A DNA stretch of 4,337 nucleotides from a virus (taxonomy: Duplodnaviria > Heunggongvirae > Uroviricota > Caudoviricetes), in IMG/VR virus record IMGVR_UViG_2648501165_000001. One strand, given 5' to 3'. The notes under the pieces are model-generated. The model saw only the letters and a program-made list of their open reading frames with translations, was not told the DNA's origin and did no database searches. This document shows, in pieces, positions 620 through 4,083 of this stretch (the first letter of the stretch is position 1; each line of letters opens with the position of its first letter). Made by a program: the position numbers and the translations under genes.

Positions 620-1108
620 TCAACATTTCGCANNNNNNNNNNTACTCATTCTCCTGATTTCCCAGAGCACACGAGGAATACCACCGTTTCCGACCGGATC
701 GCGTTTACTCCGCAGGGCGACGCTTGATTCCGCCCAGCTTTTTCTTGGAGGAAGCTCTTTCACACGAACAAAACCAGCTGCGCGAAGAGATGCTCCTGAT
801 TCATCTGCCTGGGTGTACGTAATACAACGTTGATAACCCATAGCTTTTGCTGCCCGCCAGACAGCACCATAAAGCGCGCTGTTAGCGTTGCGTTCTCCTG
901 TGGTACATGTGCGATTTACTTCAAGCGTTAATCCATCGTCCAAATGTCGTGCAACAGGTCGACCAGCTGTCGCCACACCTATCAATTCTCCGGCATTATT
1001 TCTCAGACCAATGCTGAATTTATGCCCCACTGGTGGTTTATTGTGTCGGTGGTGCTGTGCGATAAATTCCTGCGCCGCTTTCAGCGTTATAGGTGAAATG
1101 ACCATCAC
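620..1108 (-). CDS. Conserved phage hypothetical protein, 162 aa, with HHRH motif; possibly GNAT/acyltransferase-like fold; C-terminal end interrupted by an N-run
   Basis: ORF track 620..1108. GTG at 1108..1106 is followed immediately by ATG at 1105..1103 (MMVISPIT...), with AAGGAGGAG upstream (plus 1113..1121). The stop TGA (1107..1105) of the upstream Ea22-like gene overlaps this start region. The C-terminal half (NANSALYGAVWRAAKAMGYQRCITYTQADESGASLRAAGF) resembles the C-terminal motifs of GNAT-fold proteins by eye; this is unverified. The last ~7 codons span the 10-N run, so the true stop and C-terminus are uncertain. Confidence 0.7.
   Translation of the reverse strand: MMVISPITLKAAQEFIAQHHRHNKPPVGHKFSIGLRNNAGELIGVATAGRPVARHLDDGLTLEVNRTCTTGERNANSALYGAVWRAAKAMGYQRCITYTQADESGASLRAAGFVRVKELPPRKSWAESSVALRSKRDPVGNGGIPRVLWEIRRMSXXXXAKC
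634..643. other. Run of 10 ambiguous bases (N); assembly gap or masked bases
   Basis: Literal nnnnnnnnnn in the sequence at 634..643, inside the 3' end of the 620..1108 CDS. Confidence 0.95.
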
Positions 1109-1698
1109 TCAGACTCCTCCTTGATGCCAGCGGCGCTTGCTGATTCTTCATATGCGCGTTTAGCAGCGTTAAGGATTGCTGCCAGTGGCGTATAGCCGCC
1201 ATCCATTCGGATTGTGTTGTGGATGCCAGCCATTGTGTCGCGCAATTTGCTGTGGCTAGCAGACAGTTCTGCTATGCGCTTACTTCCATCCGCGATTACT
1301 CCCTCGTAATACTCGCGTTGCTCGTTGAGTTTTGATTTTGCTTCCTCAAGCTCAACACGCAGTTTCCCTACCGTTAGCGCAATATCCTCGTTCTCCTGGT
1401 CGCGGCGTTTGATGTATTGCTGGTTTCTTTCCAGCTCATCCAGCAGCGCCAAGACGGTAGCCGGATTGGCTGCGGCGATGAATTCAGCATTGGCCTGCTG
1501 TTCCATTTGGAAATCTTCATCGAAACCGCTTTCAGGATGCGCTCCTTCAATTCTGCAAATGGGAATATATCCAGCAGCCTCGCGATGAATTAGTGCATCA
1601 TCACCATCAAATCGGCTCTCTCCATATTCGAGAGACCACTCACCACACGTTGCTTTTTCTGCCTTTTCACGCAGTACCTGATAGTCAATCTTGCTCAC
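1105..1698 (-). CDS. Ead/Ea22-like family protein, paralog A (197 aa from GTG start)
   Basis: The ORF track gives 1105..1731 starting at an ATG with no ribosome-binding site. I prefer GTG at 1698..1696, which has a perfect AGGAGG (plus 1705..1710) 6 nt upstream and forms a GTGA overlap with the stop of the upstream gene. The N-terminus [21 protein letters not shown]... followed by a coiled-coil-like region (LALLDELERNQQYIKRRDQENEDIALTVGKLRVELEEAKSKLNEQ) fits the lambdoid Ead/Ea22-like family as I remember it. Confidence 0.75.
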   Translation of the reverse strand: MSKIDYQVLREKAEKATCGEWSLEYGESRFDGDDALIHREAAGYIPICRIEGAHPESGFDEDFQMEQQANAEFIAAANPATVLALLDELERNQQYIKRRDQENEDIALTVGKLRVELEEAKSKLNEQREYYEGVIADGSKRIAELSASHSKLRDTMAGIHNTIRMDGGYTPLAAILNAAKRAYEESASAAGIKEESE

Positions 1699-1715
1699 TG
1701 GTTTCCTCCTTTGCG
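1661..1715 (-). repeat. Gene-junction direct repeat, copy 1 (~49-bp core 1667..1715)
   Basis: Minus-strand reading: cgcaaaggaggaaaccagtgagcaagattgactatcaggtactgcgtga. It matches copy 2 at 46 of 49 positions and contains the RKGGNQ* codons, AGGAGG and GTG start. Confidence 0.85.
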
Positions 1716-2324
1716 AATCTGTTCCGCCCATTCTTCAAGGGATTTCTCCGCATATTCACCAGACAGGCCATCAATCGGATGCGCTTCATTAGCCAACTCT
1801 TCTTTCGCTGACAAAATCATGCGTGTAACGTCGAAAACTTCACGCAAAGACTTATTGATAAATCCGTGATTGAAAGCAGCAGCAAGACGGCTTGCGGTAT
1901 AGTTAATACCCTCGTTGCGAGCCGCCGCACGAATTTCAGCCAGGAAAGCGTCGGTGGCTGGGGTTTCCGTGAAGTTGTCCTCCCAACCGTAGTACTCCTG
2001 ACGACAGAAGTTATTAAATTCCTTCTCCGACTGTTTAAGCTCCGCATTCTCTGCCGCCAGCACCGAAAACTTCTCGTGTGCCAACTTAACAGCCGCATCA
2101 GCCTGCTTAATTGACTCAATCGCTTTCTGTTGGTCTTCGGCCAGCTCCGCTAAATTAGCCTCCAGTTCGGCTATGCGTTCGTTTAATGCATCTCGTTCAT
2201 CCAGTAGCGCCAGCACAACCTGAGGTGTGACTTTCATACGAAATGCCAGCAATTTTTGAGGCGTTGCTACTGTTTCAATTGCTACTGCCGCCTCACGCAG
2301 TGCCTGATAGTCAATTTTGCTCAC
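1695..2324 (-). CDS. Ead/Ea22-like family protein, paralog B (209 aa), mosaic, coiled-coil rich
   Basis: ORF track 1695..2324. The start is GTG at 2324..2322 with AGGAGG (plus 2331..2336) 6 nt upstream; an in-frame TGA lies 15 codons upstream with no alternative start. N-terminus [13 protein letters not shown] is near-identical to paralog A and shares the internal motif VLALLDE(R/L); the rest is divergent and heptad-like ([27 protein letters not shown]). It ends ...RKGGNQ*, with the stop overlapping the GTG of paralog A. Confidence 0.72.
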
Positions 2325-2341
2325 TGGTTGCCTCCTTTGCG
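2287..2341 (-). repeat. Gene-junction direct repeat, copy 2 (~49-bp core 2293..2341)
   Basis: Minus-strand reading: cgcaaaggaggcaaccagtgagcaaaattgactatcaggcactgcgtga. Same layout as copy 1: RKGGNQ stop, AGGAGG, 6 nt, GTG, SKIDYQ.LRE. Confidence 0.85.
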
Positions 2342-2488
2342 CAACATCGCATTCAGATATTTGTTGTCATTAACAGAACCGAAACTCTTTCTCTTAAGCA
2401 ATTCCTCTCTCGAGGGCATTGGCTTTACGCGTTGGCGAATAATCATTTCTGCCGGAAGAATGCCGGGATTGTATGCAAGTCCTCTCAT
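2321..2488 (-). CDS. Small hypothetical protein (~55 aa) ending in RKGGNQ
   Basis: ORF track gives 2321..2521 (66 aa), but the ATGs at 2521 and 2506 have no ribosome-binding site. ATG at 2488..2486 is preceded by GAGGAA at 7 nt spacing, and that site overlaps the TGA stop (2501..2499) of the upstream 98-aa gene. Predicted product: [55 protein letters not shown]. The start choice is uncertain. Confidence 0.55.
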
Positions 2489-2498
2489 GGTAAATTCC

Positions 2499-2795
2499 TC
2501 AGTCATTACTGATAGCGCCATAGCGTGAGCGGTAATTACGCAGGCGCGGGTCGATATATTCAGGGAATTTGTCTATTGTCGCTTTTCGCAACGGTCTCAT
2601 TGCTGTTTCGTTTGTTCGGTCCTTCTCCTGTTTTAGCGCGAGTTGTATATCGCGTCGGTACATCCGTTCTGCTTTTGTTTCTGGTGTCAGAGCAAGAAAC
2701 GCGTCGAAATTGTTTTTGATATTTTCCAGCACCTCCGCCTTGGAGCTACCGGAGCAGTTGCGCGGGTCATCCGCACCATACAGAGGCGCTGGCAT
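2499..2795 (-). CDS. Hypothetical protein, 98 aa; sits immediately downstream of the recombination genes
   Basis: ORF track 2499..2795. ATG at 2795..2793 has a weak AAGG about 9 nt upstream and lies 23 bp downstream of the SSB-like gene stop. The gene is co-directional and tightly packed with its neighbours. No recognisable motifs by eye. Confidence 0.6.
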
Positions 2796-3406: not shown

Positions 3407-4083
3407 GCGGCGTTTTCCTTAATTTGATGAACATTATTGATGCCGTAGTAATCACAAACAGTGGCATCGACGAAAGAGAGATCGTTATCAATCTCATTGG
3501 AATCAAACATTCCCATTGGGGATTTAACAGTGTCTGCACCGTTGTTTTTCGTGGTGAAAAAGAACTGGTCATCGCGGGTAAGAGTGCGAAGAACTATAGT
3601 AAACATGCCTTCGACAGTGATTTTCTCGTCCAGCATTTTGCCGATAGTCTTCATTTTCACGCGCCCCATAGGGGTTTCTTCGGTGTGCGCAAGAAAATAG
3701 ACTCTCAGGTCATCAGGCGCATCCTGTGCAGCCTTAATGACCTCCCATGCGTGGCGGCCTATCTCAGTAAATTTATCAAACGATTTTTCTTCTGAGCGGC
3801 GCATAAACTCATTGCTCATCACATACTGGAAGTCATCAACAATAACGATTCTTTTTCCGTATTCGTGAGCACGCTTAATTACAGCAACTATTACGTCCCA
3901 TTTGTCAGTGGTAACTACGGTTCCTTTTTTTGCTCTGGCATCCCATGCAAGCCAGTTTTTTGATTTAAATGGTAGCGGCTTGCCTATTGGTTTTATAAGT
4001 ATTGCTTCCTCTGGATTGATATTTCTCATGCTGGTTGATTTTCCGGTGCCAGACTCACCGAGTATTAATATCGCAGTTCCCAT
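3403..4083 (-). CDS. Sak4-like (AAA_24-type, RecA-core) P-loop ATPase; phage recombination protein, 226 aa
   Basis: ORF track 3403..4083. GAGGTGA Shine-Dalgarno (plus 4087..4093) lies 3 nt upstream of ATG 4083..4081 and overlaps the stop of the upstream small gene. Walker A GESGTGKST is at residues 9-17 and a Walker B-like hydrophobic run RIVIVDD follows. Size and motif layout are typical of phage Sak4/AAA_24 proteins. Confidence 0.85.
   Translation of the reverse strand: MGTAILILGESGTGKSTSMRNINPEEAILIKPIGKPLPFKSKNWLAWDARAKKGTVVTTDKWDVIVAVIKRAHEYGKRIVIVDDFQYVMSNEFMRRSEEKSFDKFTEIGRHAWEVIKAAQDAPDDLRVYFLAHTEETPMGRVKMKTIGKMLDEKITVEGMFTIVLRTLTRDDQFFFTTKNNGADTVKSPMGMFDSNEIDNDLSFVDATVCDYYGINNVHQIKENAA

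Follow-up and report, generated by a model that had tools for sequence, protein, structure and literature searches.

The hexapeptide RKGGNQ, with which two unrelated neighbouring proteins of a phage early operon terminate, is best understood as the incidental in-frame reading of a cassette of about 22 nt, and we put the probability of this reading at about 0.8. In this reading the cassette is a translation-initiation region which doubles as a mosaic joint, that is, a so-called "boundary sequence". Its consensus is CGCAAAGGAGGCAACCA-GTGA-G, also written C[G/A]CAAAGGAGGCAACCA-GTGA-G, and it is composed of the Shine-Dalgarno (SD) motif AAGGAGG, a 6-nt spacer and a GTG start codon overlapping the TGA stop codon of the gene upstream.

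The whole stretch of DNA analyzed here, hereafter the window, is 4,337 nt long and matches Escherichia phage TL-2011a (JQ011316.1), a relative of the Stx phages whose source is an O103:H25 outbreak strain, with 99.7% identity along its entire length. The window makes up the distal portion of the early-left (PL) operon, with every real gene on the minus strand (Table 1), and its order Sak4-SSB-Abc2-DUF2737 is also the gene order of phage HK620; the Sak4 and SSB genes meet in an ATGA overlap. The match extends over 4520 nt of JQ011316.1 for the 4337 nt of the window, and a run of 10 Ns at 634-643 replaces about 190 nt of the TL-2011a sequence. Because of this run, the Mom-like gene lacks its 3' end and the next gene its start, and the ORF end listed at 620 is an artefact. 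The Mom-like gene itself (620-1108, minus strand) matches PHROG 1384, "Mom-like DNA modification protein", with E=1.4e-43, and scores 24.2 bits against the Pfam Mom family, slightly under the cutoff of 27.1. In addition, an imperfect tandem-like direct repeat of 34 nt (74% identity, spacing 36) was observed at 96-165 on the plus strand, in the coding region of the last, leftmost gene of the window.

Table 1. Genes, initiation signals and boundary elements of the window, in the direction of transcription.
Feature	Position	Strand	Remarks
66-aa recombinase-associated protein	4292-4092	-	profile matches
Sak4-like annealing protein	4083-3403	-	
SSB	3406-2819	-	
Abc2 anti-RecBCD	2795-2499	-	
GAGGA Shine-Dalgarno of the DUF2737 gene	2496..2500	-	read from the sequence; 7 nt before ATG 2488, overlaps the abc2 TGA stop
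DUF2737 gene, 55 aa + stop	2488-2321	-	Pfam PF10930, PHROG 1117; last six codons, RKGGNQ, lie inside the linker
Linker copy 1: CGCAAAGGAGGCAACCAGTGAG	2320..2341	-	SD AAGGAGG 2337-2331; Ea22-like B GTG 2324-2322; DUF2737 TGA 2323-2321
Ea22-like paralog B, 209 aa, ends EQIRKGGNQ	2324-1695	-	Pfam PF13935 E=1.7e-10; PHROGs 614 and 368
bsq3-type boundary sequence copy 1 (TGAGCAAAATTGACTATCAGGCACTGCGTGA)	2293..2323	-	codes for the N-terminus of Ea22-like B; 30/31 identical to Sf6 bsq3
Linker copy 2: CGCAAAGGAGGAAACCAGTGAG	1694..1715	-	SD 1711-1705; Ea22-like A GTG 1698-1696; Ea22-like B TGA 1697-1695
Ea22-like paralog A, 197 aa from GTG 1698, ends IKEESE	1698-1105	-	Pfam PF13935 E=1.4e-39
bsq3-type boundary sequence copy 2 (TGAGCAAGATTGACTATCAGGTACTGCGTGA)	1667..1697	-	5' end of Ea22-like A; 30/31 identical to Sf6 bsq3; part of repeat D1
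Third junction, Ea22-like A / Mom-like gene: AAGGAGG-AGTCTGA-GTGA	1105..1122	-	read from the sequence
Mom-like protein	1108-~620	-	PHROG 1384

The initial annotation of this DNA had noticed that a small ORF (2321-2488) and the Ea22-like paralog B share the ending RKGGNQ while being otherwise unrelated, and that the six shared codons are the piece of a junction repeat which holds the AGGAGG of the next gene. These observations are borne out: the common ending is read from both translations, BLASTP aligns the two proteins in the tail alone (6/7 identical), and AAGGAGG is located 6 nt before the GTG in both copies. The 25-mer CGCAAAGGAGGNAACCAGTGAGCAA occurs twice on the minus strand (1691-1715 and 2317-2341), with 0.00 occurrences expected according to 200 shuffles, and is nested in a 57-nt direct repeat, D1 (1659-1715 / 2285-2341, 89% identity), made up of the 17 nt upstream of the GTG start and 40 nt of the Ea22-like 5' coding end. 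Each copy is read as CGC AAA GGA GGN AAC CAG TGA on the coding strand, and in each the next gene starts at a GTG overlapping the upstream stop (caGTGAgc), with GTGA at 2324-2321 and 1698-1695. A stop/start overlap with the SD sequence inside the upstream gene is the textbook layout of translationally coupled genes in a compact operon, and both elements are found here, with a functional spacing between the start and the SD, which the upstream ORF contains. From this junction architecture alone, we infer that the cassette may drive coupled translation. Folding of 86 nt around each copy gave z scores of -0.72 and -1.06 with structures that differ from each other and with no sign of sequestration of the SD sequence, and Rfam gave no match anywhere in the window at E<=1.

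To survey the cassette beyond the window, IMG/VR was searched in three ways, namely with the junction pattern, with DUF2737 relatives of two tail types, and with the Ea22 5' end while the leader was left unconstrained. Over all IMG/VR loci, the relaxed cassette pattern yielded 237 distinct contexts, in which proteins of 8 unrelated clusters upstream are paired in 31 ways with those of 13 clusters downstream; these counts of contexts, like the counts of pairs below, do not represent independent events, as the loci were gathered by pattern and homology searches and many belong to related prophages. The setting is the accessory part of the PL operon ("ea", equivalent to exo-xis) in lambdoid and P22-like phages of Escherichia, Shigella and Salmonella. 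An exact 20-mer, CAAAGGAGGCAACCAGTGAG, was found in 2 Escherichia contigs only, in a search with one genome per species and exact matching which is uninformative on range. When each upstream-downstream combination was represented by a single context, identity reached 90-100% only between about -18 and +4, counted from the G of GTG, and was at background beyond on either side, so that a short sequence is conserved between phages with unrelated flanks, as is characteristic of a boundary sequence. The positions at which similar loci part from each other tell the same: among pairs alike only in the upstream flank, about 53% (1152/2185) diverge at +4 to +8, and a second mode at about +31 to +50 is the end of the conserved Ea22 5' segment, while 70% of the pairs alike only in the downstream flank (941/1347) diverge at -13 to -18, and as far as -38 where the upstream proteins have the ending ...FAAQLRKGGNQ. 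Moreover, the same downstream genes (MSNSARLQL..., MSVTVEKID...) are found behind both DUF2737 and Ea22-like C-termini.

Downstream of the GTG, the repeat of the window runs into a second element. Both paralogs belong to the Ead/Ea22-like family PF13935 (cutoff 27 bits), A with 136.2 bits and profile positions 1-138 aligned from residue 2, and B with 42.1 bits; they are 39% identical to each other, and their first 13 residues are nearly identical. Clark, Inwood, Cloutier and Dhillon are said to have defined the boundary sequences in phage HK620 in 2001, seven of them being named bsq1-7. The GenBank record of Sf6 (NC_005344) labels the features bsq2 to bsq6 as "boundary sequence", and its bsq3, the 31-mer TGAGCAAGATTGACTATCAGGCACTGCGTGA, covers the beginning of the Ea22-like gene gp21, so this element is already annotated in the public record. 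In HK620, the hkaH/hkaG junction has both the linker and bsq3, and hkaH ends with ...LFADQLRKGGSQ. When the junction of 57-61 nt was compared with phage records, 461 of them matched, some over the full length and others in the bsq3 part only, the latter including ea22 of lambda DE3 and L0069 of 933W. The junction repeat of the window thus appears to be two adjacent and separable boundary elements, the SD linker and bsq3. As a side observation, the C-terminal ~75 residues of paralog B (1695-~2100, minus strand) recur nearly identically on IMG/VR proteins (U001 being one example) which have an unrelated hkaH-type N-terminus (...EMEGFLRGKC...VNETNAEYLVRKF...); judged from the protein sequences, this recurrence shows an apparent domain-level mosaicism within genes as well as between genes.

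These distributions bear on the suggestion that the two copies reflect local tandem duplication only, in which the Ea22-like gene was copied together with its 17-nt leader and landed behind DUF2737 by chance. The tandem Ea22-like paralogs, the repeat of 57 nt spanning the leader and 13 codons, and the presence of two cassette copies on one strand in 31 of 350 loci would all be expected from such an event; however, RKGGNQ-tailed DUF2737 precedes non-Ea22 genes in many phages, for which Sf6 gp23/gp22 is a named case, and neither the 31 partner combinations nor the 461 matching phage records agree with a chance landing. As a complete explanation, duplication is therefore refuted by the many-to-many distribution, and we consider it unlikely, although it may still explain the two copies in the window.

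A second question is whether the cassette could have arisen by convergence, i.e. whether strong coupled initiation would by itself evolve AAGGAGG, a spacer and GTGA with neither common descent nor recombination. In favor of this, the third junction of the window has the same architecture (7-nt spacer, GTGA overlap) in a different sequence, with the paralog A tail IKEESE, and the SD, start and stop bases are the best conserved ones, the SD bases at 97-100% and substitutions occurring in the spacer codons (N to S, K or D). Yet the spacer CAACCA and the flanking CGCA, which are under no known functional constraint, are conserved at about 80-99%. At the same time, the leaders are not graded: in 135 distinct Ea22 5' ends, collected without reference to the leader, the mismatch distribution is bimodal, with 121 leaders within 3 mismatches of AAAGGAGGCAACCAGTG and 14 unrelated ones with at least 8 mismatches, so that about 10% of Ea22-like 5' ends bear unrelated leaders (lambda ea22 and Sf6 gp21 are named examples). 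In addition, near-identical flanking genes occur in new combinations whose breakpoints are at the cassette edges. Part of the conservation, namely that of AAGGAGG, GTG and TGA, would persist under selection for translation even without recombination, but such selection alone does not explain the conservation of CAACCA and CGCA, the bimodal leaders, or the new combinations breaking at the cassette edges, and convergence is accordingly a very improbable account.

The relation between the tail of the upstream protein and the gene that follows was examined in DUF2737 proteins, which are conserved to about YLNAM[WL]R and then have alternative tails: RSGKK (the commonest), RKGG[NKS]Q, EMILRSKKDYVKK and others, with RKDKCNR in P22. 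In 159-168 distinct DUF2737 contexts, the tail type follows the downstream initiation region without exception. About 95 contexts with RSGKK have an ATGA overlap and then an HK620 hkaH-type gene beginning with MKQM[ST]LIEM, and about 70 contexts with RKGG[NKS]Q have a GTGA overlap, 4 of them being ATGA through a change of CAG to CAA. Concerning this last change, a few linkers have the Gln codon CAA for CAG, which is synonymous for the upstream gene and turns the GTG start of the downstream gene into ATG (caATGA); in one locus, a TAG stands one codon earlier (aacTAGtgagc) and cuts the tail to ...RKGGN. What follows the proteins ending with RKGGNQ, which the initial annotation had wished to see recorded, is given by the IMG/VR loci as at least eight different genes behind RKGGNQ-tailed DUF2737, not all of them Ea22-like, with the starts MSKIDYQ, MSEINYQ, MSNSARLQL, MSVYLIDKR, MSNRFYMMC, MSVTVEKID, MSESKCQIN and MTGHAAILD. 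Since RKGGNQ is followed by so many genes and about a tenth of the Ea22 leaders are unrelated to it, the cassette is a generic linker common to both neighbours. Hence the proposal that the junction is inherited as a unit stands in that the upstream tail is set by the initiation region, and is refined in that the cassette is not specific to Ea22-like genes.

The cassette also has a second reading, since the sole long upstream ORF of at least 33 contexts enters it in another frame and ends with ...(K/Q)EATSEQD, at a TGA inside codons 4-5 (ATT GAC) of the Ea22-like gene. The families concerned are DUF7446/phrog_1578, phrog_3126, Lar restriction-alleviation proteins and DNA methyltransferase; in IMG/VR loci such as L146, L057, L207 and L231, the upstream genes were seen to run in the +1 frame, with a 14-nt overlap with the Ea22-like gene and the ending ...KEATSEQD. 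About a dozen unrelated gene families thus obtain their C-terminal peptide, in one of two different versions, from one nucleotide stretch, and the idea that the C-terminus of each upstream protein is dictated by the initiation region of the next gene gains from both lines, i.e. the unbroken agreement of tail type with that region and the second reading frame.

This decides largely against the view that RKGGNQ has a function of its own at the C-terminus, be it as a degron, as a tag for binding a partner or as a signal for localisation, and that different proteins acquired it independently and kept it by selection on the protein. In favor of this view, the tail is found on at least eight unrelated protein clusters, and in many Ea22-like C-termini the similarity extends to [FI]A[AE]Q[LI]RKGGNQ. 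But four other families of real genes read the same nucleotides as KEATSEQD, which indicates that the conservation is at the nucleotide level and that the peptide is a by-product; moreover, DUF2737 orthologs exist with RSGKK, RKDKCNR or other tails in its place, and the codons of the spacer vary while the SD bases hardly do. AlphaFold2 does not predict the DUF2737 tail confidently either (pLDDT about 55), though the whole model, from a 33-sequence alignment, is poor (mean pLDDT 63.5, pTM 0.22). On this balance, a protein-level motif has little to recommend it.

As for the small ORF itself, it belongs to a known family. It scores 104.1 bits against Pfam PF10930 (DUF2737; cutoff 25, E=3.5e-30) and matches PHROG 1117 with E=6.8e-37, and a large protein collection contains 166 DUF2737 cluster representatives at E<=0.001, some clusters having hundreds of members; P22 orf56, HK620 hkaI, Sf6 gp23 and HK97 gp38 are homologs. 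The gene is placed directly after abc2 in HK620 (hkaI) and P22 (orf56) also, with one extra gene, gp24, between abc2 and gp23 in Sf6, and its position downstream of abc2 or the recombination module is thus conserved in the PL operons of P22-like and lambdoid phages. In 112 distinct core sequences, the variable sites are distributed over the three codon positions as 17/15/35, and the single-nucleotide codon differences comprise 24384 synonymous and 8871 nonsynonymous ones, a ratio which points to purifying selection on the protein. The HK620 record, for its part, places a terminator "tL3" inside hkaI, at 4045-4057 of the HK620 locus (L350), corresponding to about 2383-2395 of the window. That the small ORF is not a gene at all, being a frameshifted remnant of an Ea22-like paralog or an untranslated spacer, is scarcely credible: the ORF is short and without a known function, but the profile score, the number of homologs, the bias to third codon positions and the excess of synonymous differences all contradict it, and there is no similarity to Ea22-like proteins anywhere beyond the tail. 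The frameshifted remnant, which the initial annotation had named as the result that would overturn its reading, was rejected on these grounds.

The long reading of the ORF spans 2321-2521 on the minus strand, and three start codons had been proposed, namely ATG 2488, 2506 and 2521. Positions 1-51 of the 53 in the PF10930 profile are aligned, beginning with ATG 2488 (residue Met-12 of the long ORF), the PHROG profile begins at the same Met, and JQ011316.1 annotates a CDS of 168 nt, agreeing with the 55-aa reading (2321-2488). A leader with GAGGA as in the window is present in 87 of 159 homolog contexts. In 56 of the 159 distinct contexts, there is no in-frame ATG upstream of the equivalent of ATG 2488, and in 41 of these 56 a single in-frame codon lies between the upstream stop and that ATG; because of these contexts, ATG 2488 is the predicted start of the DUF2737 gene. 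The starts at 2506 and 2521 were rejected, as they lie inside the 3' end of abc2, the family profiles begin at 2488, and the same 56 contexts do without an upstream ATG.

Taken as a mechanism, the preferred reading would run as follows. The frame of the upstream gene passes through the ~22-nt cassette, by which RKGGNQ would be encoded incidentally; the strong AAGGAGG, the 6-nt spacer and a GTG whose last two bases open the upstream TGA would provide for coupled initiation; and the cassette, marking the exact point at which homology between phages begins or ends, would act as a mosaic joint. Gene cassettes would most likely be swapped through recombination inside the short stretch in common, and each exchange would leave the ribosome site of the downstream gene and its coupling intact. 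The window would hold two copies because two Ea22-like paralogs stand in tandem, each with a linker and bsq3. The combinations were, as we infer, probably made by recombination inside the cassette rather than by selection after illegitimate joins, for which the breakpoint positions are comparative evidence. Regarding length, the minimal homology for RecA- and Red-dependent recombination is about 30 bp (PMC2327257). The core common to the DUF2737 and Ea22-like C-termini, about 21-23 bp, is under this minimum, so crossing-over inside the core is a candidate event only; the extended versions reach about 30 bp, being about 36 nt with FAAQLRKGGNQ and 57 nt with the Ea22 5' end.

A bolder possibility, which we hold only tentatively and judge to be well below an even chance, is that the cassette could be a dedicated "plug-and-play" joint of the accessory region, at which the phage's own annealing recombinase, here Sak4 with SSB, encoded about 1 kb upstream, swaps gene cassettes at micro-homology, with coupling preserved at every swap. 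The upstream genes could then tolerate either of the imposed peptides, KGGNQ or KEATSEQD. If this were true, the cassette would be a translational-level analogue of the PeSLs of T4 or of the attC sites of integrons.

With respect to what the mosaic-joint reading means, the cassette accounts for a recurrent oddity of annotation, in which unrelated small phage proteins have identical C-termini, and it cautions against concluding on a protein motif or on homology from such tails. It also offers a quantifiable case, in which a core of 22 nt is read in two frames and joins at least 12 gene families upstream and 13 downstream, for the old question whether lambdoid mosaic joints form where short linkers are conserved (Susskind-Botstein, Clark) or by illegitimate recombination on which selection then acts. 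No new biology is opened by it, and it is already partly annotated as bsq3.

Among known systems, the nearest within the same phages are the boundary sequences, which are short, conserved among mosaic lambdoid genomes at the boundaries of modules or genes, and proposed as foci of homologous recombination, a model which reviews credit to Susskind and Botstein 1978 and Clark et al. 2001 (PMC3233612, PMC2327257). The likeness is close, as Sf6 bsq3 is identical at 30 of 31 positions to the window at 2323-2293 and at 1697-1667; the difference is that the SD part of the window (-18 to +1), which encodes RKGGNQ, lies just outside the feature annotated in Sf6, and that the SD linker also stands alone before non-Ea22 genes. 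A text search of the literature for "bsq3" returned unrelated papers only. The cassette likewise resembles ordinary coupled junctions of the ATGA/GTGA kind, in its GTGA overlap, its AAGGAGG 6 nt upstream and the SD sequence in the last codons of the upstream gene; however, those junctions are specific to a gene pair, whereas here a near-identical 22-mer is reused among many unrelated pairs. In another phage group, the nearest analogue would be the PeSL cassettes of T4-type phages, in which conserved regulatory motifs flank variable accessory genes and for which modular shuffling with the expression signals kept has been proposed (PMC2839356, PMC4122927). A PeSL, however, is by description a transcriptional composite of promoter and terminator, while the linker is a translational signal within a polycistronic operon, and unlike the PeSL stem-loops no RNA structure was detected at the linkers of the window (z -0.7 and -1.1). 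On the whole, the phenomenon belongs to a known class, namely junctions for translational coupling which are at the same time mosaic boundary sequences of lambdoid phages, and is real but ordinary; what may be new, in a modest way, is the explicit demonstration that about a dozen unrelated upstream genes receive one of two C-terminal peptides from a single 22-nt initiation cassette.
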